Source: a virus (Duplodnaviria; Heunggongvirae; Uroviricota; Caudoviricetes). From it: a DNA stretch of 64,000 nucleotides. This document shows, piece by piece, positions 2,942 through 38,279 of this stretch (position 1 is the stretch's first letter; each line of letters begins with the position of its first letter). The position numbers and the translations under genes are program-made. The notes below the pieces were generated by a model, which saw only the letters and a list, made by a program, of their open reading frames with translations, was not told the origin of the DNA and made no database searches. The stretch lies in IMG/VR virus record IMGVR_UViG_2721755721_000001; one strand, written 5' to 3'.

Positions 2942-3269
2942 TCGTGGCTGACACAAGCACACTATCGGTGCTCAGTGTGTGGTGGCTGGCACAACGGGCG
3001 CTTGCGGTTATTCAGACGTGGCTATGAAAGCCAGCCAGATAAAAATGCCCTCTGTTTCAGTCTGCTTTATGTCCCTGATGCGGTGGAACAGGTGAAACAT
3101 GTGTTACAGCTTTGTTTTATAAGGCATTTATATACACTGCACCGGTGGAACATCGCGGGTAACAAGGTGAAACAGCGGATTGGCTGGCGTTACATCTGTT
3201 CCACCTCACTATTTCAGAAGGTGGAACAGGTTCAGCCCTGTAAAATACGGTTGTTCCACCTGTTTCACC
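2942..3269. repeat. iteron cluster resembling P4 ori/crr-type repeats
   Basis: GGTGGAACAGGTGAAACA at 3083-3100; GGTGGAACA at 3144 and 3220; GGTGAAACA at 3166; inverted copies TGTTCCACC at 3197 and 3252 and TGTTTCACC at 3261; GTGGCTGNCACAA at 2942 and 2981. Confidence 0.55.
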
Positions 3270-3303
3270 TGTTACCCTTAATAAATAAGACTCACGCAAA
3301 GCC

Positions 3304-5976
3304 TTAACCCGGCACCTCGCTGTTGAAGACATAGAGCCTGCGGGGATTCATCTCTGGCGGGCGAATGGTTGTCTGGAGTTTGCCATCAGTGGAGGGCAGC
3401 AGGTATCCACGATCTGCGCACAGACGCGCCACCTTGCGCGGGTCAAATCCCCTGCAGATTTCTTTCCAGCCGGACGGCATGACATAGAACGTAGTGACAG
3501 CTTCCGTGCCCTGCGCGGTACTGCCTTTCTCCACCCTTCGCCAGCCCACCATATTGCCGGGGCGGTTGCGCTCGTCATACCAGTCTGCAAAGCGGCTGTA
3601 CTGATTCGCGGTAAAGAAACTGCGAACCTGCTCCAGTGCGGCGATATCTTCCTGATTGGCGGTGTGCCCGCGATCTTTCAGCCATGCGTTCAGGCAGACG
3701 CGGGTTGCCCGCAGTGCTTCACCCTCAGGCCAGCCGGTGATACCCAGACGGGTTGCCAGTTCACCTGCCATCGCCACCAGTGCAAAGCGGTTCACAGCCC
3801 GGCCCACCTGATTGCCTGCATCTTTCGGAGTCAGGGCGGCAGCATATTCCTTCATCAGCGATTTTGCCTGTGCCGTTAGTCCGTTAAGATCAGCGGTCAG
3901 TGCTTTCAGCCACTCCCGGAACGGCGAACCGTAGTAGCAGGACGTGGCCCATTCAAGATGCTCTGCCAGAGCCTTGCCGCTGTCGAAGCCGTGCAGCTCC
4001 TCAAAAACGCCAAACTTCCCGGAATCGCTGGGGATCTGGATCATCCTGACTTCCATCCCGGCAAAAGTACGCTCACCGGCCTTTGCCGCATGTTCGGTCA
4101 GAGACAATTCGCCAGTTGAAAAGAACAACAGGCGCCACTGCTTACGGGTACGCAGCTCACCGTCCGTACCGGCACGGCCCTTGCCCTGACCGTTTGCCAG
4201 CATGTAGGCGATATTGCCTGCCTCGCGTCCGTCAACTTCCCGGATCTCATCAAGCATCATGGCGGCATCGTTGCGGCGGCTGGCGCATCCCTCCAGTGCG
4301 TTGCCGGTGGCCCGCCATGTCTGCCAGTAGTCAGGCCCGCCGCAGACGGAGGTTGCTGCTTTCATGGTGGTGGTCTTACCGTCTGTCGATTCCCCTTTGA
4401 GGTGGTAGCCGCCGCCGTCCATACCAACCAGCCGTAACAGTGGTGCAGCAAAGGCCAGGCTGACAGCAAATGCCACGCGGGAGTTGCCGGTACAGTAGCG
4501 GGATACATGCTCCCGCCATTCCTCTGTTGTGCCCGACACGCGGAAATCACGCCCCTGCACGGAAGTGGTCTGGAGAATGACACCCTCTGCACCTTCACCG
4601 CTGACCTCATCCTGCAGGACGTAAACCTGACCATGCCAGCCAGTACGACTGACGCAGGTCACGCGGCGTTCCGGTTTACACAGTGAGATATATTCCATCA
4701 GGCGTGCGCGTGCCTCACCGGTGGTGCTGATATAAGACAGCCCGTTAACCAGCAGTACCCGGCGCAGTTCCTCACCACTGCCGCTCAGCATTTCCATCGG
4801 CATCGCCCAGCGGCGACACTCACCCCACGTATCTTCCCATTCCAGCAGTCGTCCGAAGTTACCGCCATCGGCATCGCAGGTGATTGCCGTCACGCGCAGC
4901 GGGCTGCATATTTTGACGTTCTGGATCTCCGTCTCACCGTTGCGCTGTACCTGCTTTTCATACCAGAGATATTCCTGGGTAAGACGGAACCCGTGCGGCA
5001 GTTGCGTGCGGCTTTCCCCGCAGAGTACCAGACCGTTGCGAAAGGCTTCACGGGCACGGGTAATACCGTGCTCCCGATGAAAGTCATTCCAGTCAGCCTT
5101 AATCTCTTCTGGTGGCAGCGTCATCCAGCCGCCAACAGCTTTTGCCGCCCGTTCAGCAAAGGCTCTGCCGGGATTCTCACCCCCGTCCTGAAAATCGTTA
5201 TCACCGGCGATGATAATTTTTACCTCAGGCCAGCGTGCCCGCAGCGACTGCGCCACATTGGGCAGGTTGCCCGCAGATATGGCAGCCACTACGCATCCGG
5301 CAGTGAGCTGGCTTACCGTCAGCGCCGTAGCGTAACCTTCGGTAATCACCACCTGTATCGGTGGTTCAGACGGTAACGGGCTGAGCGACACAAACGCGCC
5401 TTTCATCGTGCTGCCGGGCAGTATGCTTTTTTCACCCGTCGGGGCGATAAGCTGTGCACCGGTCACGGCTCCGGTGTTGGTCGTGAGTGGTAACAGCAGG
5501 GAACCGGCAGGAAAATCCTTACCGCTGATATGCTGTACGCTTCCGGTCAGAGAGGCCGGGTATCCGGCGAACCCTTTTCCTGTCAGATAGGCGCTTTCTC
5601 CCGTGTGGCTCTCTTTCATCAGCGCCGCCACGGTAAGACCCATGTCGCGTTTAGGGGCTTTTTGTCTGGCAGGCTTAACAGGCAGTTCCTGCATATCCGG
5701 CACATTAAGCACCTGCGCCACCTCCTGCGCAGCCTTTCTGACGTTGTAACCGGTTACGAGCTTAACCAGATCCAGACCGTCACCATTGCCACACTGGCTG
5801 CAGATCCACGTCCCGCGCCCGTCAAGGTCATCAAGGCGAAAACGATCCTTGCCCCCACATTTCGGGCAGGGACCGTGCCTGCCGTTTTCAGGTACATCAA
5901 TACGCAGCATCTGCAGAATAACGGGCCATTTCCCCCGTGCGGCGGCTGAAACCTGCGTAACCGTCTGTATTGTCAT
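3304..5976 (-). CDS. DNA primase/helicase, P4 alpha-like
   Basis: 890 aa; N-terminal zinc motif CPKCGG...CSQCG; acidic primase-like cluster IIIAGDNDFQDGGENPG; P-loop GESTDGKTT in C-terminal half. Confidence 0.85.
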   Translation of the reverse strand: MTIQTVTQVSAAARGKWPVILQMLRIDVPENGRHGPCPKCGGKDRFRLDDLDGRGTWICSQCGNGDGLDLVKLVTGYNVRKAAQEVAQVLNVPDMQELPVKPARQKAPKRDMGLTVAALMKESHTGESAYLTGKGFAGYPASLTGSVQHISGKDFPAGSLLLPLTTNTGAVTGAQLIAPTGEKSILPGSTMKGAFVSLSPLPSEPPIQVVITEGYATALTVSQLTAGCVVAAISAGNLPNVAQSLRARWPEVKIIIAGDNDFQDGGENPGRAFAERAAKAVGGWMTLPPEEIKADWNDFHREHGITRAREAFRNGLVLCGESRTQLPHGFRLTQEYLWYEKQVQRNGETEIQNVKICSPLRVTAITCDADGGNFGRLLEWEDTWGECRRWAMPMEMLSGSGEELRRVLLVNGLSYISTTGEARARLMEYISLCKPERRVTCVSRTGWHGQVYVLQDEVSGEGAEGVILQTTSVQGRDFRVSGTTEEWREHVSRYCTGNSRVAFAVSLAFAAPLLRLVGMDGGGYHLKGESTDGKTTTMKAATSVCGGPDYWQTWRATGNALEGCASRRNDAAMMLDEIREVDGREAGNIAYMLANGQGKGRAGTDGELRTRKQWRLLFFSTGELSLTEHAAKAGERTFAGMEVRMIQIPSDSGKFGVFEELHGFDSGKALAEHLEWATSCYYGSPFREWLKALTADLNGLTAQAKSLMKEYAAALTPKDAGNQVGRAVNRFALVAMAGELATRLGITGWPEGEALRATRVCLNAWLKDRGHTANQEDIAALEQVRSFFTANQYSRFADWYDERNRPGNMVGWRRVEKGSTAQGTEAVTTFYVMPSGWKEICRGFDPRKVARLCADRGYLLPSTDGKLQTTIRPPEMNPRRLYVFNSEVPG

Positions 5977-10942: not shown

Positions 10943-11317
10943 TCAAAGGGGAGGCTCTGGTAGCGGCATCCAGTGTGACGGTTTCCACGACGCACCAGGA
11001 ATTATCCACCCATCATTAGCGTCAGGATGCCCCGGGATGTAAGTCGCCCATTTCATTCGCCAGTCACCTTTCCTGTCAAACTCCCTGGCAACAAGAACGG
11101 CTGTTTTGGTATCCGGCATTCGCTCACTACAGCTTATCCAACCATCAGGAGTTACCGGAGAGTTGCCGGGTTCTTTAATGTGCAAGCGAGGCTCACCATC
11201 TTTTGGCTCAGGCCACTGGCGCTCCATGTTGATCTTCAATTTATCTTCCATAGCAGCGGTAATTTCAGCATCGCTGATGCCAGCACGGCGCTGTGCATCC
11301 CACAACAGGAAATGCAT
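10943..11317 (-). CDS. DUF551-like phage protein
   Basis: Trp-rich C-terminal pattern as recalled for DUF551; in frame with the upstream ORF across a TAG. Confidence 0.5.
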   Translation of the reverse strand: MHFLLWDAQRRAGISDAEITAAMEDKLKINMERQWPEPKDGEPRLHIKEPGNSPVTPDGWISCSERMPDTKTAVLVAREFDRKGDWRMKWATYIPGHPDANDGWIIPGASWKPSHWMPLPEPPL

Positions 11318-26147: not shown

Positions 26148-26809
26148 ATATCTACGAAAGAATTGATGGCAGCAAATACCGAAATATTTGGGTAGTTGGC
26201 GATCTGCACGGATGCTACACGAACCTGATGAAAAAACTGGAGACGATAGGATTCGACACCAAAAAAGACCTGCTTATCTCGGTTGGCGATTTGGTTGATC
26301 GTGGTGCAGAGAACGTTGAATGCCTGGAATTAATCACATTCCCCTGGTTCAGAGCTGTACGTGGAAACCATGAGCACATGATGATTGATGGCTTATCAGA
26401 GCGTGGAAACGTCAATCACTGGCTGCTTAATGGCGGTGGCTGGTTCTTTAATCTCGATTACGACAAAGAAATTCTGGCTAAAGCTCTTGCCCATAAAGCA
26501 GATGAACTTCCGTTAATCATCGAACTGGTGAGTAAAGGAAAAAAATATGTCATCTGCCACGCCGATTATCCTTGTGATGAATACGAGTTTGGAAAGCCAG
26601 TTGATCATCAGCAGGTAATCTGGAACCGCGAACGAATCAGCAACTCACAAGACGGGATCGTGAAAGAAATCAAAGGCGCGGACACGTTCATCTTTGGTCA
26701 TACGCCAGCAGTGAAACCACTCAAGTTTGCCAACCAGATGTATATCGATACCGGCGCAGTGTTCTGCGGAAACCTCACATTGATTCAGGTACAGGGAGAA
26801 GGCGCATGA
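26144..26809 (+). CDS. ninI: NinI Ser/Thr protein phosphatase
   Basis: 221 aa; GDLHG and GNHE metallophosphatase motifs; near-identical to lambda NinI. Confidence 0.9.
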
Positions 26810-27429
26810 GACTCGAAAGCGTAGCTAAATTTCATTCGCCAAAAAGCCCGATGATGAGCGACTCACCACGGGCTACGGCTTCTGACTCTCTTTCCGGTAC
26901 TGATGTGATGGCTGCTATGGGAATGGCGCAATCACAAGCCGGATTCGGAATGGCTGCATTCTGTGGTAAGCACGAACTCAGCCAGAACGACAAACAAAAG
27001 GCTATCAACTATCTGATGCAATTTGCACACAAGGTATCGGGGAAATACCGTGGTGTGGCAAAGCTCGAAGGAAATACTAAGGCAAAGGTACTGCAAGTGC
27101 TCGCAATATTTGCTTATGCGGATTATTGCCGTAGTGCCGCGACGCCGGGCGCAAGATGCAGAGATTGCCACGGTACAGGTCGGGCAGTTGATATAGCCAA
27201 AACAGAGCTGTGGGGGAGAGTTGTTGAGAAAGAATGCGGAAGATGCAAAGGTGTCGGCTATTCAAGAATGCCAGCAAGCGCCGCATATCGCGCTGTAACG
27301 ATGCTAATCCCAAACCTTACTCAACCCACCTGGTCACGCACTGTTAAGCCGCTGTATGACGCTCTGGTTGTGCAATGCCACAAGGAAGAGTCAATCGCAG
27401 ACAACATTTTGAATGCGATCACACGTTAG
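26806..27429 (+). CDS. Q: Q late antiterminator
   Basis: 207 aa, near-identical to lambda Q as recalled. Confidence 0.95.
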
Positions 27430-27473
27430 CGCCATGATTGCCACGGATGGCAACATATTAACGGCATAATATT

Positions 27474-27502
27474 GACTTTTTGAATAACTTTGGGGAAACT
27501 TG
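27474..27502 (+). promoter_or_regulatory. pR'-like late promoter with overlapping qut region
   Basis: TTGACTTTTTGAATAACTTTGGGGAAACTTGAC resembles lambda pR' TTGACTTATTGAATAAAATTGGGTAAATTTGAC. Confidence 0.55.
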
Positions 27503-27665
27503 ACACCAATAATGGGCGTTTTTTACATGTCATTGATGAGCTCAATAACCTGCCGCCGAGTAGTTTTTATGCTCTGAATTGTATTTGTGTAGTAAACATG
27601 CTGACTGCAATGTAATAGAGTTTTTTTAGCCTGTAACCTCTTGACGGCATTGAATTGCTTTTGTT

Positions 27666-28424
27666 ATGAGTTGTAAGCCAATGTTATCATCTTGTATTGG
27701 GGTGGTTATGAAGGATGGTGCGCTGCTCAGGAGTTCTTCACTTTTTATTGCCTACATGGGATGCCTTGGATGGGGGAGTGCTTATTTCTATGGATGGGGT
27801 ACTTCTTTTTACTACGGCTTCCCATGGTGGATTGTAGGTGCAGGTGTTGATGATGTTGCCAGAAGTTTATTTTTTGCAGTTATCGTCATTGCTATATTTC
27901 TTATCGGTTGGGGTATTGGTGTTGTATTCTTTTTCGCAGTGAAAAGAAAACATTCTATGCAAGAGCTAAATGTATTTCGCCTTTATTTTGCTGTGGAATT
28001 ATTGTTTGTGCCGGCAATTATTGAGTTTTCTATATTGAGACAGAAGATTCAGGTACCTCTTTTGCTACTGTCAGCAGCGATTGCGCTGGCGGTTACAATT
28101 TCGATAAGATCTTATGGGCGATTTTTATCGGTATCATGCTTCTATGATAAGCCATTTATAAAAAAACATTTTTTTGAGATTGTGATGATTGCTTTTGTGG
28201 CATATTTCTGGCTTTTTTCATTTCTGACAGGATATTACAAACCACAGTTTAAGAAAGAATATGAAATGATTAATTATAATGATGATTGGTATTATGTTCT
28301 TGCTCGTTATGATAATTGTCTGGTTTTGTCTACTTCTTTCAATGCAGGTAGTAAAAGGTTTGTCATTTATCAATCAGCACAAGATAAGAATCTTCAGGTT
28401 GATATTGTAAGGACCAGAATTTAA
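27666..28424 (+). CDS. hypothetical multi-pass membrane protein (about 238-252 aa) in the stx/moron slot
   Basis: AT-rich ORF with at least five hydrophobic helices; likely start ATG 27709 after RBS GGGGTGG; possible own promoter TTGACG at 27641. Confidence 0.55.
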   Translation: MSCKPMLSSCIGVVMKDGALLRSSSLFIAYMGCLGWGSAYFYGWGTSFYYGFPWWIVGAGVDDVARSLFFAVIVIAIFLIGWGIGVVFFFAVKRKHSMQELNVFRLYFAVELLFVPAIIEFSILRQKIQVPLLLLSAAIALAVTISIRSYGRFLSVSCFYDKPFIKKHFFEIVMIAFVAYFWLFSFLTGYYKPQFKKEYEMINYNDDWYYVLARYDNCLVLSTSFNAGSKRFVIYQSAQDKNLQVDIVRTRI

Positions 28425-28557
28425 TTGGCTGCATAAATAATATTTTAAGTTGCAAGTTGGCTATTCGTAGGAATAGAACCTCAGGCATGCTGAATGCGTT
28501 TTCTGAACATTGTTTTATAAACTGTGTCTGCTTGCTGTTGTGATCCTGCTTTTAGTG

Positions 28558-28668
28558 ATGGTGATGATGGATTTCACCAGCAGGATAATGTTGGTACTGA
28601 CTGATGGCGCTCTGGTCTGCGGCATTGTGGTATTGCTGTGGCCGATGATGAAAGAACAGAATGAATAA
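28558..28668 (+). CDS. small hydrophobic ORF, 36 aa, not in supplied ORF track
   Basis: ATG 28558, TAA 28666-28668; MVMMDFTSRIMLVLTDGALVCGIVVLLWPMMKEQNE; 134 bp after the membrane protein gene. Confidence 0.3.
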   Translation: MVMMDFTSRIMLVLTDGALVCGIVVLLWPMMKEQNE

Positions 28669-28854
28669 TTCTTGACTTTTTTGTTTACTGTTTATTAAAA
28701 AACCAACCGCATGGTGAATCCTCCTTGGAGGGGCTAAATGATCGAGTTTTAAGGGCACGTAGCGAGTTCTGTTTGATCATTGCAGAACTTAGCGGGAGGC
28801 GCCATGCGTACATCACTAGTGTTATTCCTTTTATCATTTTCCTTGTGAGTTCTG

Positions 28855-28880
28855 GCTGCGCATTGCGCAGCTTTTTTTTA
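28855..28880 (+). terminator. intrinsic terminator upstream of nanS-p
   Basis: perfect hairpin GCTGCGCA-T-TGCGCAGC then TTTTTTTTA; preceded by a 14-codon ORF at 28804-28848. Confidence 0.6.
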
Positions 28881-28965
28881 TGACCTGCCACTGGCAGATG
28901 GTCATCCTGTGATTTGATTCCGGTTCCGGCTTTTTAACTCTGTTCCTGTACACGGGAGAAATTCG

Positions 28966-30816
28966 ATGTCGATTAAACATTACGATGTTGTCAGGGCGGC
29001 GTCGCCGTCAGACCTTGCGGAAAAGCTGACACACAAACTGAAAGAGGGCTGGCAGCCATACGGCGGACCGGTTGCCATTACGCCGTACACACTGATGCAG
29101 GCGGTGGCTATTGAAGGAGAGCCACAGGTCGGCCCTTCATCTGAGCCGGATTGGTACTACGTCATCGTACTGGCCGGGCAGTCCAATGCCATGGCTTACG
29201 GTGAAGGGCTTCCGCTGCCGGATTCATACGATGCTCCGGATCCGCGCATTAAACAGCTGGCGCGCCGCAGTACAGTGACGCCGGGCGGGGCTGCCTGCAG
29301 ATATAACGATATTATTCCGGCTGACCACTGTCTGCATGATGTGCAGGATATGAGTACGCTGAATCATCCGAGGGCTGACCTGAGCAAAGGGCAGTACGGC
29401 TGTGTCGGCCAGGGTTTACATATTGCCAAAAAACTGCTCCCGTATATCCCGAATAACGCGGGGATCCTGCTGGTACCATGCTGTCGTGGTGGTTCGGCAT
29501 TTACCCAGGGCGCGGAGGGGACATTCAGCGAGTCCACGGGGGCCAGTCAGGATTCGGCACGCTGGGGGGTGGGCAAGCCGTTATATCAGGATCTGATTTC
29601 CCGCACAAAAGCGGCATTGCAGAAAAATCCCAAAAACGTTCTGCTGGCCGTCTGCTGGATGCAGGGTGAGTTTGACATGAGCGCCGCCACCCACGCACAG
29701 CAACCTGCGCTGTTTACAGCCATGCTGACACAGTTTCGTGCTGACCTCTCCGTGTTTAACGCGCAGTGCCATGGTGGCAGCGCTGCAGATGTGCCGTGGA
29801 TTTGTGGTGACACGACGTATTACTGGAAAAATACATACGCTACCCAATACGACACCGTGTACGGCGGGTATAAAAACAGGGAGAGTGAGGGCGTTTATTT
29901 TGTGCCCTTCATGACAGACGGTAACGGCGTCAATACCGCCACTAACGCGCCGGCAGAAGATCCGGATATTCCGGCATCAGGATATTACGGTGCGGCATCG
30001 AGAACGAATGGAAACCAGGTATCATCAAACCGCCCGACACATTTCAGTTCATGGGCGCGCAGGAGCATTATTCCGGATCGTCTGGCAACCGCTATTCTGA
30101 ACGCAGCCGGGCGCACCTCAGCCTTCATCAGTGGTAAGGCACCGGAAATCAAACCCTCGCCCGGCGGCAACACACCATCGGGTCCGTCTGCAGATACGTC
30201 CGTTCGCACAATCTCCCTGCTGCCGACAGCCGGAGAGGCTGCTGCGCAGGGCTGGACCATTAAGGACGGCGGAATTCAGTTGTCGGGTGGTGTATTTAAG
30301 ATCGCCAAGCAGAGCAATAAAACCTGGTCCCTGACGCATCCGGTGGATGACGCAATTACCCTGCTGACACAGGGCGGCAGACTGACCTGTAAGTTCCGCC
30401 TGTCAGGCGCACTGACCAACAATCAGTTCGGGCTGGGGATTTATCTGTATACGGATGCTCCCGTTCCTGATGGTGTGGCGATGACGGGTACCGGTAATCC
30501 GTTCCTGATGTCGTACTTCACTCAGACCACTGACGGCAGAGTGAATCTGATGCATCACAGGAAAGCCGGAAACACGAAGCTGGGGGAGTTCGGCGATTAC
30601 GGTAACGACTGGCAGACGCTGGAGCTGGTGTTCACCGCCGGCAGTGCCACGGTTACTCCGAAACTGAATGGAGTGGCTGGCCCGGCATTCCAGGTTATAA
30701 AAGACAGTCTGACACTGGGACTGAATGCGCTGACGCTGACGGATGTTACAAAAAATGCAGCGTATGGCGTTGAGATAGAAAGTCTGGTGCTGGAGATAAA
30801 TGCACCGGCAGCATAA
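28966..30816 (+). CDS. nanS-p: NanS-p-type prophage esterase (N-terminal DUF1737-like plus SASA/sialate O-acetylesterase-like domain)
   Basis: 616 aa; architecture and position (between Q/stx slot and holin) as recalled for EHEC prophage nanS-p genes. Confidence 0.65.
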   Translation: MSIKHYDVVRAASPSDLAEKLTHKLKEGWQPYGGPVAITPYTLMQAVAIEGEPQVGPSSEPDWYYVIVLAGQSNAMAYGEGLPLPDSYDAPDPRIKQLARRSTVTPGGAACRYNDIIPADHCLHDVQDMSTLNHPRADLSKGQYGCVGQGLHIAKKLLPYIPNNAGILLVPCCRGGSAFTQGAEGTFSESTGASQDSARWGVGKPLYQDLISRTKAALQKNPKNVLLAVCWMQGEFDMSAATHAQQPALFTAMLTQFRADLSVFNAQCHGGSAADVPWICGDTTYYWKNTYATQYDTVYGGYKNRESEGVYFVPFMTDGNGVNTATNAPAEDPDIPASGYYGAASRTNGNQVSSNRPTHFSSWARRSIIPDRLATAILNAAGRTSAFISGKAPEIKPSPGGNTPSGPSADTSVRTISLLPTAGEAAAQGWTIKDGGIQLSGGVFKIAKQSNKTWSLTHPVDDAITLLTQGGRLTCKFRLSGALTNNQFGLGIYLYTDAPVPDGVAMTGTGNPFLMSYFTQTTDGRVNLMHHRKAGNTKLGEFGDYGNDWQTLELVFTAGSATVTPKLNGVAGPAFQVIKDSLTLGLNALTLTDVTKNAAYGVEIESLVLEINAPAA

Positions 30817-31183
30817 TAAAAAAAGAGCCAGCGACTGACCTGAAAGAAGACGCTGGCTAAAAGGCCTTATATGTTTGTAGAGACTTATTTTTCACAGACA
30901 GCAATGATGCCTGTCAATATATTATCAATATGCGGATTGTTTCAGTTACAGATGCTTTATTAAGGAAAAAAACAGCCAGCACTGACTTTCGGTGGAGAGG
31001 TGCTGGCTCAGAAGGATAGTTGGATTTCACATGATACTTATGCCTGGCGGTATATTTTCTGACAGACAGTGACGGGTGTTGTCAAGATATTGTGTCATTT
31101 ATAACCTGAATCAGGGGAGGCCGGAATGTTATCTGGCATTTTTAGCAGAGCCTGAATGCCATAATCACGGCTCCCGGAGTTGG

Positions 31184-31263: not shown

Positions 31264-31470
31264 ATGGAAAAAATCACAACGGGTGTGTCATACACCACGT
31301 CAGCGGTGGGGACGGGATACTGGTTACTGCAGCTGCTGGACAAAGTCTCTCCGTCCCAGTGGGTGGCAATCGGTGTGCTGGGGAGTCTGCTGTTTGGCCT
31401 GCTGACGTATCTGACTAACCTTTATTTCAAGATTAAAGAAGATAAGCGTAAGGCGGCGCGGGGAGAGTAA
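31264..31470 (+). CDS. S: holin, phage 21 S-type (pinholin-like)
   Basis: 68 aa; [37 protein letters not shown] resembles S21 as recalled. Confidence 0.8.
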
Positions 31471-31474
31471 AGCG

Positions 31475-31819
31475 ATGAAGAAAAAATACGAACTGGTTGT
31501 TAAAGGGATAAATAATTACCCGGATAAGATTACTGTTACTGTGGCACTGGAAATTGGTGGGTATCCGTCACTGTTGTTGCCAAATGTGGCGATTAGTCTT
31601 GACCGTACTGAAGGTGCCACGCTGGAGTTTTACGAAGCGGAGGCGAAAAAGCAGGCGAAGCAGTTTTTCATGGATGTTGCTGCCGGGTTATGTGAAGGGG
31701 ATGGTCCGTTGCCGGAAAAGCGGCCCATCATTTTAGAGGCGCAGGATGTGTTGATAACCTACAGAGGAAAACTACCGGGAATAATTACTGGTTCTCTGAA
31801 GACTCCACCGCTGGCCTGA
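31475..31819 (+). CDS. DUF1327-like lysis-cassette protein
   Basis: 114-aa ORF between holin and endolysin; family assignment from memory. Confidence 0.45.
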   Translation: MKKKYELVVKGINNYPDKITVTVALEIGGYPSLLLPNVAISLDRTEGATLEFYEAEAKKQAKQFFMDVAAGLCEGDGPLPEKRPIILEAQDVLITYRGKLPGIITGSLKTPPLA

Positions 31820-31869: not shown

Positions 31870-32403
31870 ATGAACACCAAAATCAAATACGGCCTGTCGG
31901 CTGCCGTTCTGGCGCTGATTGCCGCAGGTGCGCCTGCGCCTGAAATCCTCGACCAGTTTCTGGATGAAAAGGAAGGTAACCACACCACGGCATACCGTGA
32001 TGGCGCGGGTATCTGGACCATCTGCCGCGGTGCCATCCTGGTGGATGGTAAACCTGTCGTTCCGGGCATGAAGTTGTCGAAGGAAAAATGCGACCAGGTT
32101 AACGCCATTGAACGTGATAAGGCGCTGGCATGGGTGGAGAAAAACATCAAAGTGCCACTGACCGAACCCCAGAAAGCGGGGATCGCGTCATTCTGTCCGT
32201 ACAACATTGGTCCCGGTAAATGTTTCCCGTCGACGTTTTACAGACGAATTAATGCAGGTGATCGCAGGGGAGCGTGTGAGGCGATTCGCTGGTGGATTAA
32301 GGACGGTGGCAGAGACTGCCGTATTCGCTCAAATAACTGTTACGGTCAGGTATCCCGTCGCGACCAGGAGAGTGCGCTGGCGTGCTGGGGAATTGACAGA
32401 TAA
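31870..32403 (+). CDS. R: SAR endolysin (T4-lysozyme-like, signal-anchor-release type)
   Basis: 177 aa; N-terminal weakly hydrophobic SAR segment YGLSAAVLALIAAGAPA; lysozyme-like body. Confidence 0.8.
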   Translation: MNTKIKYGLSAAVLALIAAGAPAPEILDQFLDEKEGNHTTAYRDGAGIWTICRGAILVDGKPVVPGMKLSKEKCDQVNAIERDKALAWVEKNIKVPLTEPQKAGIASFCPYNIGPGKCFPSTFYRRINAGDRRGACEAIRWWIKDGGRDCRIRSNNCYGQVSRRDQESALACWGIDR

Positions 32404-32701
32404 GCAGAATATTTTGCTGAAAAATGCGGTTTGCTCACACGGACGGATAACACGAAATCCTGAGAACTGACAAAAACTAAGTGAATAAAAGTAAAAACCC
32501 CATTTGTTGGCTGCAAGCGGGGTTTTGTGTTTCCTGACTCCGGAAAAGTCAAAGGAGAAAGTGTGTTTGATTTTAGCAAACTGATTCGGGAGATTCGAGT
32601 GATGGCTGAAAAATTATCCACCTGGAAGTTCATCCTTATCTGGCTGGTGTTTGTGATTATGGCCTCCGGTTATTTCATCGGTCAGATACGCTGGTGGTGA
32701 A

Positions 32702-33196
32702 ATGAACCGCGTACTGTGCGTGGTCATCATTGCCCTGCTGGTGGCCTGTGGTGCGCTTAGTCTGGGGCTGAATCATTACCGTGATAACGCCATAACCTAC
32801 AAAGAGCAGCGCGATAAAAAAGTCAGTGAGCTGGAGCTGGCAAATGCAACCATTACTGATATGCAGCAGCGCCAGCGTGATGTTGCTGCACTTGATGCCA
32901 GATACTCGAGGGAATTAGCCGATGCGAGAGCTGAAAATGAAACTCTTCGCGCTGACGTTGCCGCTGGTCACCGCAGCCTGCGGATCAACGCCACCTGTCC
33001 AGGTCCCGTGCGTGAAGCCACCGGCACCGCCCGCGTGGATAATGCAACCGGCCCCCAACTGGCAGACACCGTTACACGGGATTATTTCACCCTCAGAGAG
33101 CGGCTGATGACGATGCAGAAGCAACTGGAAGGGGCACAGGACTATATCCGCACTCAGTGTACTAAGCAGGCTTTTTATTATCCGGAGGATGTATGA
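32702..33196 (+). CDS. Rz: Rz i-spanin
   Basis: 164 aa; N-terminal TM, coiled-coil periplasmic domain; Rz1 embedded in +1 frame. Confidence 0.8.
   Translation: MNRVLCVVIIALLVACGALSLGLNHYRDNAITYKEQRDKKVSELELANATITDMQQRQRDVAALDARYSRELADARAENETLRADVAAGHRSLRINATCPGPVREATGTARVDNATGPQLADTVTRDYFTLRERLMTMQKQLEGAQDYIRTQCTKQAFYYPEDV
32937..33107 (+). CDS. Rz1: Rz1 o-spanin lipoprotein embedded in Rz
   Basis: [15 protein letters not shown] lipoprotein signal; Pro-rich mature part; nested in Rz. Confidence 0.7.
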   Translation: MKLFALTLPLVTAACGSTPPVQVPCVKPPAPPAWIMQPAPNWQTPLHGIISPSESG

Positions 33197-33417
33197 AGAA
33201 ATTACAGGTAACGGTAAAACCTTTTCAGGGAACAATTCCGTTCCGTGTTTTGCAACATGGCCGTGTTCTGCTTGAAGAGGTGTTCAGAGGTAAATGCACT
33301 GAATGTTATTCACGAACATATGAAGTGAATGCCACGCATGAAGAATTCACCGTTGAGTGTGTGATGAATACTGATAAATGCCGAATGGTATCCGCTGAAT
33401 TACAGCCAGTGTGTTGA
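33193..33417 (+). CDS. hypothetical small Cys-containing protein downstream of Rz
   Basis: 74-aa ORF conserved in both lysis cassette copies. Confidence 0.45.
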   Translation: MKKLQVTVKPFQGTIPFRVLQHGRVLLEEVFRGKCTECYSRTYEVNATHEEFTVECVMNTDKCRMVSAELQPVC

Positions 33418-33776
33418 GCGACCTTATTATCCATGCGCGGTATTGTCGCCGTATTCCTGCATTAACAGAGACCGCAGCCCGACAGGGCGACTCCTCTGCG
33501 GGAGTGTGCGGGGATAATCAAAAACGATACACACCGGGGTTTACCGCGTAAACGGAGCGCGGCGTTCTCCCCTCATGGTCGCCCGTCCGGTGCGATGGTG
33601 GAAGAAACTGGAATCTGTTCAATAAAAAAAACTGCCGTGTTGGAGTCACAGCAGTAATGTACTGATTGGGTAGAAGATTATTATTGTTATGCTTTATTCT
33701 TATTCTATATGGCTGATTATTTGGTAACCGGCTCATTTAAACCGTCTGGTCTGTTTCCTCCGGCTCTACAAAAATA

Positions 33777-34454
33777 ATGTCCATCATTTTTAATGGACAC
33801 TATCGTATGAAACACCGGACCTGGATCACTGAAGCTTTACGTCTTCACTTTGAAGAACATTTACCCCGGGTTGTGGCCGGGCGTCGCCTGAGTGTACCAA
33901 AATCAACAGTTTGTAGTATGTTCGTGCGCTTTCGGAGAGCTGGCCTTTCGTGGCCTTTGCCCGCAGGCATGTCGGAGCAGGAACTTGATGCCTGCCTTTA
34001 CGGACAATTTTCCACGGTACCAGTCGTACGTCCTGAAAGCACCGTTATATCCGAAGCCCCCGTGGTAAAAAAACGTCCCCGGCGGCCCAACTTCCCTTAT
34101 GAGTTTAAAATCGCCTTAGTGGAGCAGTCACTACAGCCCGGAGCCTGTGTGGCGCAGATCGCCCGGGAAAACGGAATCAACGATAACCTGCTCTTCAACT
34201 GGCGCCATCAATACCGGAAAGGTGGCCTGCTGCCTTCCGGAAAAAATATGCCGGCACTGCTTCCCGTGACGTTAACGCCGGAGCCGGATAATAAAATCCC
34301 GGCCCCCGCACAGGAACCAGAGCAGATAAATACACCGTCCGACAGTCTGTGTTGTGAGCTGGTTCTGCCGGCCGGAACTCTCAGGCTTAAAGGTAAACTG
34401 ACGCCGGCGTTATTACAGACACTTATCCGCGAAATAAAAGGGAGCAGCCACTGA
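33777..34454 (+). CDS. IS66-family accessory protein (orfA-like)
   Basis: first ORF of IS66-type unit; start possibly at MKHRT (33807). Confidence 0.6.
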   Translation: MSIIFNGHYRMKHRTWITEALRLHFEEHLPRVVAGRRLSVPKSTVCSMFVRFRRAGLSWPLPAGMSEQELDACLYGQFSTVPVVRPESTVISEAPVVKKRPRRPNFPYEFKIALVEQSLQPGACVAQIARENGINDNLLFNWRHQYRKGGLLPSGKNMPALLPVTLTPEPDNKIPAPAQEPEQINTPSDSLCCELVLPAGTLRLKGKLTPALLQTLIREIKGSSH

Positions 34455-34801
34455 TGATATCTCTCCCTGCAGGTTCGCGTATCTGGCTGGTTGCAGGTAT
34501 CACCGATATGCGAAATGGCTTTAACGGCCTGGCATCAAAAGTTCAGAACGTCCTGAAGGATGACCCGTTCTCCGGACACCTGTTCATCTTCCGCGGACGC
34601 CGGGGTGACCAGATAAAAGTGTTGTGGGCTGACAGTGACGGACTGTGCCTCTTCACCAAACGCCTGGAGCGGGGCCGCTTCGTCTGGCCAGTCACCCGTG
34701 ACGGCAAGGTGCACCTTACTCCGGCTCAGTTATCCATGCTTCTTGAAGGTATCAACTGGAAGCACCCGAAACGAACGGAACGCGCTGGAATCCGCATATA
34801 A
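34454..34801 (+). CDS. IS66 Orf2-like protein (TnpB)
   Basis: 115 aa MISLPAGSRIWLVAGITDMRNGFNGLASKVQ..., characteristic IS66 orfB. Confidence 0.85.
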   Translation: MISLPAGSRIWLVAGITDMRNGFNGLASKVQNVLKDDPFSGHLFIFRGRRGDQIKVLWADSDGLCLFTKRLERGRFVWPVTRDGKVHLTPAQLSMLLEGINWKHPKRTERAGIRI

Positions 34802-34820
34802 CCCGTTGTAAAGTGAGGAT

Positions 34821-36392
34821 ATGGACACCTCACTTGCTCATGAGAACGCCCGCCTGCGGGCACTGTTGCAGACGCAACAGGACACCATCCGCCAGATGGC
34901 TGAATACAACCGCCTGCTCTCACAGCGGGTGGCGGCTTATGCTTCCGAAATCAACCGGCTGAAGGCGCTGGTTGCGAAACTGCAACGTATGCAGTTCGGT
35001 AAAAGCTCAGAAAAACTTCGTGCAAAAACCGAACGGCAGATACAGGAAGCACAGGAGCGAATCAGCGCACTTCAGGAAGAAATGGCGGAAACGCTGGGTG
35101 AGCAATATGACCCGGTACTGCCATCCGCCCTGCGCCAGTCTTCAGCCCGTAAACCGTTACCGGCCTCACTTCCCCGTGAAACCCGGGTTATCCGGCCGGA
35201 AGAGGAATGCTGTCCTGCCTGTGGTGGTGAACTCAGTTCTCTGGGATGTGATGTGTCAGAGCAACTGGAGCTTATCAGCAGCGCCTTTAAGGTTATCGAA
35301 ACACAACGTCCGAAACAGGCCTGTTGCCGGTGCGACCATATCGTGCAGGCACCAGTACCTTCAAAACCCATTGCACGCAGTTATGCCGGAGCGGGGCTTC
35401 TGGCCCATGTTGTCACCGGGAAATATGCAGACCATCTGCCGTTATACCGCCAGTCAGAAATATACCGTCGTCAGGGAGTGGAGCTGAGCCGTGCCACACT
35501 GGGGCGCTGGACAGGTGCTGTTGCTGAACTGCTGGAGCCGCTGTATGACGTCCTGCGCCAGTATGTGCTGATGCCCGGTAAAGTCCATGCTGATGATATC
35601 CCCGTCCCGGTCCAGGAGCCGGGCAGCGGTAAAACCCGGACAGCCCGGCTGTGGGTCTACGTCCGTGATGACCGTAACGCCGGTTCACAGATGCCCCCGG
35701 CGGTCTGGTTCGCGTACAGTCCGGACCGGAAAGGTATCCATCCACAAAATCACCTGGCCGGTTACAGCGGTGTGCTTCAGGCCGATGCTTACGGTGGTTA
35801 CCGGGCGTTATACGAATCCGGCAGAATAACGGAAGCCGCGTGTATGGCTCATGCCCGGAGAAAAATCCACGATGTGCATGCAAGAGCGCCCACCTACATC
35901 ACCACGGAAGCCCTGCAGCGTATCGGTGAACTGTATGCCATCGAGGCAGAGGTCCGGGGCTGTTCAGCAGAACAGCGTCTGGCGGCAAGAAAAGCCAGAG
36001 CCGCGCCACTGATGCAGTCACTGTATGACTGGATACAGCAACAGATGAAAACACTGTCGCGTCACTCAGATACGGCAAAAGCGTTCGCATACCTGCTGAA
36101 ACAGTGGGATGCACTGAACGTGTACTGCAGTAATGGCTGGGTGGAAATCGACAACAACATCGCAGAGAACGCCTTACGGGGAGTGGCCGTAGGCCGGAAA
36201 AACTGGATGTTCGCGGGTTCCGACAGCGGTGGTGAACATGCGGCGGTGTTGTACTCGCTGATCGGCACATGCCGTCTGAACAATGTGGAGCCAGAAAAGT
36301 GGCTGCGTTACGTCATTGAACATATCCAGGACTGGCCGGCAAACCGGGTACGCGATCTGTTGCCCTGGAAAGTTGATCTGAGCTCTCAGTAA
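34821..36392 (+). CDS. IS66-family transposase (TnpC)
   Basis: 523 aa; N-terminal leucine-zipper-like region, CPACGG zinc motif, conserved catalytic core. Confidence 0.85.
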
Positions 36393-36422
36393 ATATCAAT
36401 ACGGTTCTGACGAGTCGCTTAC

Positions 36423-36713
36423 ATTACTGTTACTGTGGCACTGGAAATTGGTGGGTATCCGTCACTGTTGTTGCCTGATGTGGCGATTAGTCTTGACCGT
36501 ACTGAAGGAGCCACGCTGGAGTTTTACGAAGCTGAGGCGAAAAAGCAGGCGAAGCAGTTTTTCATGGATGTTGCTGCCGGGTTATGTGAAGGGGATGGTC
36601 CGTTGCCGGAAAAGCGGCCCATCATTTTAGAGGCGCAGGATGTGTTGATAACCTACAGAGGAAAACTACCGGGAATAATTACTGGTTCTCTGAAGACTCC
36701 ACCGCTGGCCTGA
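36423..36713 (+). pseudogene. 5'-truncated second copy of DUF1327-like gene (starts at IS66 junction)
   Basis: sequence after the IS right end aligns with 31527 onward of copy 1; N-terminal 22 codons missing. Confidence 0.7.
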
Positions 36714-36763
36714 AGACTTAACATATCCAGGGATTTGAAATCGATAAACCCTGATAAATATCC

Positions 36764-37297
36764 ATGAACACCAAAATCAGATACGGCCTGTCGGCTGCCG
36801 TTCTGGCGCTGATTGCCGCAGGTGCGCCTGCGCCTGAAATCCTCGACCAGTTTCTGGATGAAAAGGAAGGTAACCACACCACGGCATACCGTGATGGCGC
36901 GGGTATCTGGACCATCTGCCGCGGTGCCATTCTGGTGGATAGTAAACCTGTCGTCCCGGGCATGAAGTTGTCGAAGGAGAAATGCGACCAGGTTAACGCC
37001 ATTGAACGTGATAAGGCGCTGGCATGGGTGGAGAAAAACATCAAAGTGCCACTGACCGAACCCCAGAAAGCGGGGATCGCGTCATTCTGTCCGTACAACA
37101 TTGGTCCCGGTAAGTGTTTCCCGTCGACGTTTTATAAACGAATTAATGCAGGTGATCGCAGGGGAGCGTGTGAGGCGATTCGCTGGTGGATTAAGGACGG
37201 TGGCAGAGACTGCCGTATTCGTTCAAACAACTGCTACGGTCAGGTATCCCGTCGTGACCAGGAGAGCGCGCTGGCGTGCTGGGGTATCGACAGATAA
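36764..37297 (+). CDS. R: SAR endolysin, second diverged copy
   Basis: 177 aa, about 98 percent identical to 31870-32403 product. Confidence 0.8.
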   Translation: MNTKIRYGLSAAVLALIAAGAPAPEILDQFLDEKEGNHTTAYRDGAGIWTICRGAILVDSKPVVPGMKLSKEKCDQVNAIERDKALAWVEKNIKVPLTEPQKAGIASFCPYNIGPGKCFPSTFYKRINAGDRRGACEAIRWWIKDGGRDCRIRSNNCYGQVSRRDQESALACWGIDR

Positions 37298-37778
37298 GCA
37301 GAATATTTTGCTGAAAAATAAAGCATGGCCACGCGGGCGGATAACATGAAATCCTGCGAACTGGCGAAACGTAAGTGAATAAAAGTAAAAACCCCGTTTG
37401 TTGGCACCAAGCGGGGTTTTGTGTTTCTGACCTTGAGTAAGGCAAGGGAGAACATGGCGAAGTATAAACGAATTCTGTTGAGGTTGACCATGAAAAACGG
37501 CCTTGAACTGAAAGCGCCTGTAACTGATGACATCAGCAGAGCACTGGCTTTTGCCATTAAGTGGGTGGCGGTCGGTGTTGCTGTGTCCCCGATGCTGTAT
37601 GGGCTGGCAAAACTGGTCATTGCGTTGAAATCGTGAAGGGAGGATTAAGCATGTCAGACAAACTCATAACGCTGGCGAAGATCCTCTGTGTAATTGTCGG
37701 CATTTCATTTTCACTAATGCTGGTTGCTCTTTTTCTTTCCATGGCCTGGATGATGTTGTCTTCGTCGGGGCTGCTGGG

Positions 37779-38279
37779 GTGAACATAAACCGAATGCTTT
37801 CCGCGTTTATCGTTATTCTGCTGGTGGCCTGTGGTGCGCTGTGGATGGCAACAGACCATTACCGTGATAACGCGATTACCTACAAAGCGCAGCGCGATAA
37901 CAAAGCCAGTGAACTGAAGCTGGCGAACGCAACCATTACTGATATGCAGGTGCGCCAGCGCGATGTTGCTGCGCTCGATGCAAAATACTCGAGGGAATTA
38001 GCCGATGCGAGAGCTGAAAATGAAACTCTTCGCGCTGACGTTGCCGCTGGTCGTAAGCGCCTGCGGATCAACGCCACCTGTCCAGGCTCCGTGCGTGAAG
38101 CCCCCACCACCTCCGGCGTGGATAATGCAACCGGCCCCCGACTGGCAGACACCGCTGAACGGGATTATTTCATCCTCAGAGAACGGTTGATGACAATGCA
38201 GAAGCAGCTGGAAGGGGCGCAGGAATATATCCGCACTCAGTGCACTAAGCTGGCTTTTTATTATCCGGAGGATATATGA
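37779..38279 (+). CDS. Rz: Rz i-spanin, second copy (diverged N-terminus)
   Basis: 166 aa; C-terminal two thirds near-identical to copy 1, N-terminus differs. Confidence 0.75.
38020..38190 (+). CDS. Rz1: Rz1 o-spanin, second copy
   Basis: [15 protein letters not shown] lipoprotein signal, embedded in Rz copy 2. Confidence 0.7.

Follow-up and report, generated by a model that had tools for sequence, protein, structure and literature searches.

The DNA analysed here (the window) is a stretch of 64,000 nucleotides (nt) from a virus of the Caudoviricetes, recorded in IMG/VR as IMGVR_UViG_2721755721_000001, and the segment of interest is the cassette of 1536 base pairs (bp) at window positions 27430-28965, between the antiterminator gene Q and a gene for a nanS-p type esterase. 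Three genes on the plus strand make up this cassette. The first of these (27708-28424) encodes an inner-membrane protein of 238 amino acids (aa) belonging to the TfpB family (PF27470; "STM1630 family" in RefSeq). The second (28510-28668) begins with a TTG codon and encodes a two-helix membrane peptide of 52 aa of the DUF3927/TciB-like type (Pfam PF13064). The third (~28709-28880) specifies the small RNA (sRNA) PasD in its PasD2 variant, a relative of STnc100. We put at roughly 0.85 the probability that the whole represents an already known accessory cassette, which has spread horizontally among lambdoid prophages and is composed of two mosaic units, namely a promoter with the TfpB-like gene and the DUF3927 gene with PasD/STnc100.

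Many Escherichia coli chromosomes carry the entire 1536 bp with 99.8% identity, and among 5426 complete E. coli genomes, 682 (~13%) contain 80% or more of the cassette. Phage 434 (OL657226) matches it with 98.9% identity over 27564-28965, and phage 2B8 matches the cassette with 98.2% identity. The cassette genes are annotated in the records of both phages, which alone provided coverage in the phage collection, where no Stx-phage record contained the cassette. E2348/69, a strain of enteropathogenic E. coli (EPEC), displays the identical order of Q, TfpB-like gene, DUF3927 and PasD in its prophages PP2 and PP4. The PP2 version shares 715 of 717 nt in the TfpB-like gene (E2348C_0686), all 159 nt in the DUF3927 gene, and 173 of 174 nt in PasD2 (NC_011601, 741157-741330, from the 5' boundary seen in RIL-seq to the U tract). 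All components of the cassette are already annotated or published, at odds with the first-pass annotation of this DNA, which had described an unlisted ORF in a cargo module.

On its left, the cassette is bordered by a Q gene of the lambda type (26806-27429, plus strand, 207 aa; Pfam PF03589 Antiterm, E 4.3e-57), which is followed on the same strand by the late promoter pR' and a qut-like site at 27472-27516 (-35 TTGACT at 27472-27477, -10 GAAACT at 27495-27500). The latter stretch is 90-92% identical to the annotated "promoter" and "lambda Qut site" of HK97, HK106, mEp234 and related phages, and the pR' transcript would begin at ~27507. The right border is formed by the nanS-p type sialate O-acetylesterase, a gene of the phage backbone (28966-30816, plus strand; Pfam SASA, DUF1737 and DUF6645), and 3' of it come, in order, the P21-type holin gene (31264-31470), a DUF1327 gene, endolysin and Rz. 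The first-pass annotation had read this layout of Q, pR', nanS-p and holin as that of the Shiga-toxin phages, and all of these elements are indeed found at the expected places.

The window shows 96% identity with Stx1 phages including H-19B over a stretch that opens at position 28973, 7 nt inside nanS-p, and takes in the holin gene. The cassette occupies the position of the toxin genes, because the stx1AB genes of H-19B lie between Q and the position matching window 28973; the proposal of cargo in the stx slot is thus borne out by comparison with H-19B-type Stx1 phages. An Stx-converting phage has stxA and stxB between Q and the lysis cassette, where the window has the three genes described above. 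The reported absence of stx and tRNA genes likewise agrees with our searches, as tblastn with H-19B queries found no Stx1A- or Stx1B-like sequence in the window (best E 0.78) and no tRNA gene was detected across its whole length. That stx had been "replaced" is a stronger statement than these data allow, as they do not show the direction of evolution. Given that the homology to the Stx1 phages breaks at the start of nanS-p, these phages lack PasD at this place.

The PasD small RNA gene

PasD1 and PasD2 were discovered by Hfq RIL-seq in E2348/69, verified by Northern blotting and found to be Hfq-dependent (Pearl Mizrahi et al. 2021, PMC8550237), and the 3' sequence and seed of PasD2 in Fig. S5 of PMC8550237 match window positions 28826-28875. 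The seed, UGUGAG, is located at 28844-28849, while the segments GCAUGGUG (28709-28716) and CGCCAUGC (28800-28807) pair to form the closing helix of the RNA. PasD has been recognized as a diverged relative of STnc100, and in phage 2B8 the esterase gene has pasD as its immediate upstream neighbour (Zhu, Shabalina and Storz 2026, bioRxiv 10.64898/2026.05.13.724894). The window copy shows the same synteny, being an intergenic element of a lambdoid late region, 3' of Q, in the position of pasD2 in PP2, pasD1 in PP4 and pasD in 2B8.

A putative PasD promoter can be recognized at 28672-28700 on the plus strand, with a -35 element TTGACT (28672-28677) just 3' of the DUF3927 stop codon and a -10 element TTAAAA (28695-28700) 17 nt apart from it. 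Both hexamers are conserved across the PasD/STnc100 variants, and the -10 element ends 8 nt 5' of the PasD2 5' end implied by RIL-seq (NC_011601 741157, corresponding to window 28709). PasD is accordingly predicted to be made from its own promoter, with a transcription start near 28709. At the other end, the hairpin terminator that had been noted at 28855-28880 proves to be a real and strong one, and is the intrinsic terminator of PasD (28854-28880), with a stem at 28854-28872 of 8 bp (6 of them GC), a U8 tail, a folding energy of -13.5 kcal/mol and a z-score of -3.5.

In the phage 434 record, a protein gene has been placed on this RNA (CPT_434_70, the frame at 28725-28883 of the window). Its TTG start is inside a conserved RNA hairpin, it runs through the terminator and its length shifts with a one-base indel; we regard it as an over-call.

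The TfpB-family protein and the DUF3927 peptide

The TfpB-like protein has approximately five transmembrane helices and a C-terminal five-strand β-domain (AlphaFold2 model, pLDDT 69.6). Its gene is AT-rich, with a GC fraction of 0.32-0.41 versus 0.50-0.58 in the flanks, and the moron character ascribed to it on these grounds holds. The earlier description of an AT-rich gene for a multi-pass membrane protein likewise stands, except for its start, since the interval 27709-28424 is not a multiple of three; the gene begins with the ATG at 27708. This codon is favoured over two starts further upstream, 27666 and 27681, because these fall within or at the promoter (its predicted -10 element and start site); the extension they would add is unconserved in the family.

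The family assignment comes from a precomputed PF27470 match on a 99%-identical cluster representative and on 105 homologues. The RefSeq product name at a 99.7%-identical locus is "STM1630 family protein", one GenBank record labels a fragment "protein tfpB", and the protein falls in phrog_1521, which PHROG labels as of unknown function. The protein of the Salmonella STM1630 locus is 45% identical over 100% of the length. An alignment of the family reaching down to this level of identity contains 40 invariant columns, which cluster in the N-terminal aromatic/glycine-rich segment AY..G.LGWGSAYFYGWG.S.YYGFPWW and in the C-terminal β-domain, a pattern of conservation that, judged from the alignment, is indicative of a protein under purifying selection. 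The family is small. An exhaustive profile search of 1.8 billion clustered proteins recovered 72 relatives or representatives and no bridge to a known superfamily, and the members with a named source are from Enterobacterales, except for one metagenome bin labelled Acinetobacter. The Pfam and NCBIfam model scans used gave no match to the membrane protein, and a sequence profile search of the PDB returned nothing below an E-value of 3.4. The literature on TciB, TfpB, DUF3927 and STM1630 yielded no functional study.

Homologues with 45-66% identity adjoin eltAB on plasmids of enterotoxigenic E. coli (ETEC), sseJ in Salmonella (STM1630) and lpxR in Citrobacter rodentium. More remote members are found at prophage edges, beside umuDC and tail-fibre genes, and the neighbourhoods of these remote homologues revealed no conserved partner gene. 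STM1630 is induced in macrophages; its mutant grows in LB without a defect and has no reported intramacrophage defect (bioRxiv 10.1101/689075). On the ETEC plasmids (loci L005-L008, ~2987-5714) the TfpB homologue, with 59% identity, is divergently oriented to the heat-labile enterotoxin genes eltAB, and the sRNA gene isrN (148 bits) is found ~4 kb beyond it.

Upstream of the TfpB-like gene, the -35 hexamer TTGACG proposed in the first-pass annotation is present at 27641-27646 and, with an 18-nt spacer and an extended -10 element TGtTATGAG (27662-27670), forms a putative sigma-70 promoter (27641-27670, plus strand). Comparative support for this prediction comes from the two blocks CCTCTTGACG and TTTGTTATG, which are invariant and equally spaced in an ETEC-plasmid paralogue of 74% overall identity, although the leader around them is otherwise poorly conserved between the two. 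Homology with this paralogue begins at 27637, where the -35 block is situated, and the blocks are identical across all phage copies. A sequence TTGT-N6-TTGT at 27661-27674, where the annotators of phage 434 marked a site, fits the CII-binding consensus; it overlaps the putative -10 region and lies 10 nt 5' of a second -10-like sequence, TATCAT (27685-27690).

In published RNA-seq data from uninduced E2348/69, the DESeq2 baseMean values of E2348C_0686, Q, esterase and holin are 226, 69, 102 and 3.5, respectively, with pasD2, at 11017, being the dominant transcript of the cassette. The value for E2348C_0686 in uninduced cells implies that this near-identical gene is transcribed in the lysogen, in line with the expectation raised earlier for the window gene.

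The DUF3927 peptide scores 53 bits with PF13064 over residues 7-50, where the cut-off is 25 (E 3.4e-14), and is assigned to phrog_1470 ("TciB-like", E 2.5e-17). Its gene is annotated in phage 434 (as TciB), in 2B8 and in RefSeq ("DUF3927 family protein"). The 36-codon frame at 28558-28668 that the first-pass annotation had considered unlisted is therefore the inner part of an annotated 52-codon gene, for which the boundary is now fixed at the TTG at 28510. The notion of a two-helix hydrophobic peptide applies to the 52-aa form, in which the helices span residues 4-20 and 26-46, but not to the 36-aa form, which retains one of them. The first 16 residues, with the N-terminal helix, are also kept in diverged homologues that start with ATG. 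The peptide had further been regarded as a small partner of the membrane protein, a pairing that does not hold across their relatives, as the non-phage TfpB homologues occur without DUF3927 and the latter has a TerB-family partner in other phages. The name "Tci" derives from tciABC of phage P1 and is descriptive; tciA, tciB and tciC are non-essential (PMC10695390). Some DUF3927 proteins, such as P0135, look chimeric, with a TerB-type N-terminus and a TfpB-type C-terminus, a pattern compatible with recombination within this very small gene.

A two-unit model and its alternatives

We propose that Unit 1 (~27637-28424) is a self-contained moron, comprising its own putative sigma-70 promoter and the gene of the TfpB/STM1630-family inner-membrane protein. 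This gene would be transcribed in the lysogen without phage induction, and its product might act on the cell envelope to the benefit of the lysogen. That the protein is a lysogen-expressed inner-membrane accessory factor can be held with moderate confidence as regards its expression, and with low confidence as regards the envelope role, which by inference might extend to both proteins. Unit 2 (28510-28880) consists of the DUF3927/TciB-like peptide gene followed by that of PasD, a trans-acting Hfq-dependent RNA of ~170 nt, which is predicted to start from its own promoter just past the DUF3927 stop. The RNA ends at the hairpin-U8 terminator, which also adjoins the nanS-p backbone. PasD pairs with core and virulence mRNAs via the single-stranded seed just 5' of this terminator, and the hairpin is its terminator and probably its Hfq-binding module. 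Based on the published work, we have high confidence that PasD functions in the lysogen by Hfq-dependent base pairing in trans.

A degenerate remnant of a tR'-type terminator at 27547-27568 on the plus strand was recognized by alignment with phage 434 (compared with positions 2982-3007 of locus L001). The tR' hairpin is intact in 434 (-13.3 kcal/mol, z -3.8, U8 tail) and in PP2 of E2348/69, but weak in the window (-7.8 kcal/mol, z -1.25, U5 tail) and likewise decayed in PP4 and 2B8. The phages with the decayed form (the window, PP4 and 2B8) all have Q of the lambda type, and in all three the stretch from pR' to the PasD terminator is free of strong terminators. With the tR' hairpin decayed, constitutive pR' transcripts may also enter the TfpB-like gene. 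The PasD terminator is the first strong intrinsic terminator 3' of pR' in this phage class and hence would probably also halt transcription that lacks antitermination ahead of nanS-p and the lysis genes, in which case it may double as a barrier overridden by Q-modified polymerase.

Certain observations weigh against this interpretation of the cassette. The Rfam model RF02076 (STnc100) matches 28679-28883 over its full length (1-206 of 206, E 1e-7), but the score of 41.3 bits is below the gathering threshold of 47; the phage 434 copy obtains 41.4 bits, and the canonical STnc100 at the same place in JLK-2012 obtains 107 bits. The DUF3927 frame has a TTG start and no visible Shine-Dalgarno (SD) sequence and begins 85 nt past the upstream stop codon, so that its translation is uncertain. 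The expression data all come from E2348/69 rather than from the strain of the window, and the promoters and start sites are deduced from sequence and read positions.

Two alternatives concern the coding status of the short frames. The first-pass annotation had drawn attention to a leader-like mini-ORF of 14 codons (28804-28848), which could be construed as a translated leader peptide that controls the hairpin 6 nt downstream by attenuation and so regulates read-through into nanS-p within a protein-coding cargo module. An SD-like GGGAGG 4 nt 5' of its ATG, the end of the ORF 6 nt before the terminator stem, and the ribosome footprints on some STnc100 copies of EDL933, with ribosome coverage values of up to 3.2 (PMC5331693), would be compatible with this idea. 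Such an ORF does exist as a string, but one so short is expected by chance, and it corresponds to the 3' part of a published Hfq-dependent sRNA. Its AUG resides in the closing helix GCAUGGUG/CGCCAUGC and the GGGAGG is also paired in the predicted fold, both being in conserved helices of the validated RNA, while its stop codon (28846-28848) lies within the seed. Neither frame nor length is conserved: PasD2 has 14 codons, PasD1 has 36 because a +1 indel shifts its frame past codon 7, and the STnc100 copies have 42 unrelated ones. Across the eleven STnc100 copies of EDL933, the footprint ratios are inconsistent, ranging from none (one copy, with zero reads) to 3.2, and other copies are nearly footprint-free, with values of 0.04-0.24 (PMC5331693). 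An attenuator would involve a conserved ORF governing alternative terminator/antiterminator pairing, whereas here length and frame vary, the AUG and SD-like sequence are sequestered, and no alternative antiterminator pairing was found at the PasD terminator. The mini-ORF is a chance reading frame inside PasD; a role in attenuation is exceedingly improbable, and the supposed leader peptide can be set aside as a false lead. The DUF3927 frame, for its part, might be a non-translated relic that lost its ATG and translational coupling when TerB was exchanged for TfpB, leaving DNA that serves only as the upstream region of pasD. The start features listed above accord with this possibility, given that in TerB-type phages the ATG overlaps the terB stop, as do the location of a recombination junction at the DUF3927 start codon and the fact that the annotators of phage 434 assigned the gene no ribosome-binding site. 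Against it, ~1000 contigs carry the 52-codon frame in intact and identical form, though these copies are too alike to measure selection, and the frame has kept both hydrophobic helices and the family-invariant residues, so that we consider a relic decidedly unlikely.

The other two alternatives assign different roles to the proteins. As the "Tci" name suggests, the TfpB-like protein and DUF3927 might constitute a superinfection-exclusion or an anti-phage/colicin-tolerance system protecting the lysogen. The slot is a classic one for morons, TfpB-like transcripts are present in the lysogen, both products are membrane proteins, and the prophage-edge location of remote TfpB relatives would also suit such a function. 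In sister phages, moreover, DUF3927 is paired with a TerB-family protein, and the Ter stress and phage-inhibition systems include TerB. However, PADLOC gave zero matches at E-values up to 1 for all three ORFs, and in Salmonella and Citrobacter, TfpB orthologues without DUF3927 occupy non-phage chromosomal loci adjoining sseJ or lpxR. These loci, taken together with the macrophage induction of STM1630, point to host adaptation rather than phage defence, which we view as unlikely. Alternatively, both protein genes might be late genes, transcribed mainly from pR' under Q antitermination, with a lytic role such as lysis timing or release. They are on the late strand 3' of pR', just ahead of nanS-p and holin, and the degenerate state of the tR'-like hairpin in this phage class would let pR' transcripts enter them. 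Yet neither protein resembles holins, antiholins, spanins or other lysis proteins in Pfam, their PHROG labels are "unknown function" and "moron", and the true holin, endolysin and Rz genes are located downstream. In addition, the TfpB-like transcript is ~65-fold above that of the holin by baseMean in uninduced E2348/69, the conserved promoter of the gene travels with it to plasmids, the family is also represented outside phages, and phages with stx or TerB cassettes in the slot manage without a TfpB-like gene. Primarily lytic functions are hence very unlikely in our estimate.

The interpretation as a two-unit accessory cassette could be extended to an integrated prophage circuit, in which the PasD terminator functions as tR', PasA regulates the TfpB-like mRNA and the TfpB proteins share an envelope activity, but this extension as a whole is highly doubtful. 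In lambda-Q-type hosts of the cassette, whose ancestral tR' has decayed, constitutive transcription from pR' would traverse the TfpB-like and DUF3927 genes and meet a functional tR' in the PasD terminator, so that cargo expression and the Q checkpoint would both be tied to a single RNA element. PasA, the other sRNA of this prophage, may act as a regulator of the TfpB-like mRNA, in support of which there is a weak RIL-seq chimera, E2348C_0686::pasA. The recurrence of TfpB beside eltAB, sseJ, lpxR and in the stx slot may reflect a shared envelope activity linked to those factors. TfpB/STM1630 and DUF3927 are common in pathogenic E. coli, and TfpB homologues recur beside virulence genes. Given this frequency in pathogens, the virulence neighbours and the transcription in the lysogen, a modest experimental effort could assign a role to these proteins.

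Neighbouring genes and comparison with related systems

A gene for an Hfq sRNA of the PasA/PasC type is present on the minus strand at 30966-31049, antisense between nanS-p and holin. Apart from 2 mismatches, a 36-nt stretch in it agrees with the seed and terminator published for PasA (0 such matches expected by chance), and it is followed by a stem formed by GCCAGCAC and GUGCUGGC and by a run of U residues. Two published PasA targets are also present, the motif CUGGUGCUGGA at the 3' end of nanS-p (~30784-30794) and a weaker site (AUGAUGUUGCC) within the TfpB-like gene at ~27849-27859. The DUF1327 gene between holin and endolysin (31475-31819, 114 aa, E 3e-45) is a small cargo gene within the lysis cassette. 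Further downstream, the lysis genes are duplicated (31870-38279), with endolysin at 31870-32403 and 36764-37297 and Rz at 32702-33196 and 37794-38279. Between the two copies there is an insertion sequence (IS) element of the IS66 family, with an accessory ORF at 33777-34454 and a DDE_Tnp_IS66 transposase at 34821-36392, suggesting that the duplication is either IS-associated or the junction of two recombined prophages.

Of the systems compared, phage 434 has the same gene order in the same position, with CPT_434_68 ("putative membrane protein"), CPT_434_69 (TciB) and CPT_434_70. The Q/pR' region is of the lambda type in the window, PP4 and 2B8 but of the Q82 type in 434 and PP2, and lpxR, which is near the cassette in systems of the 434/PP2 type, has no counterpart nearby in the window. 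The PasD terminator of the window also differs from those of the 434 and E2348/69 cassettes by a one-base deletion at its 3' foot. As for the RNA itself, the window copy is virtually identical to PasD2, with the seed, terminator and synteny common to PasD1 and PasD2, whereas relative to STnc100 (RF02076) PasD forms a diverged branch with another seed region.

STM1630 (45% identity) and ETEC tfpB (59%) encode homologous proteins of 237-238 aa with the same N-terminal aromatic/glycine-rich motif as the window protein, but they are located outside prophage late regions, have no adjoining DUF3927 or PasD, and have sseJ, eltAB or lpxR as neighbours. The TerB-type sister phages share with the window the succession of DUF3927 and an STnc100-type sRNA and the junction from terminator to nanS-p. 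They differ in that the gene upstream of DUF3927 encodes a cytoplasmic TerB-family protein and that the DUF3927 ATG overlaps the terB stop, in place of the TTG and 85-nt gap of the window. In two such loci (L004, 2748-3980; L013, 1412-3319) the slot holds three tRNA genes (Asn, Thr and Gly) followed by the TerB-family gene, DUF3927 and a canonical STnc100. Finally, the H-19B-like Stx1a phages have in common with the window the architecture of Q, pR', cargo, nanS-p and holin, with stxAB filling the slot which in the window, devoid of both stxAB and tRNA genes, is occupied by the TfpB-like gene, DUF3927 and PasD.

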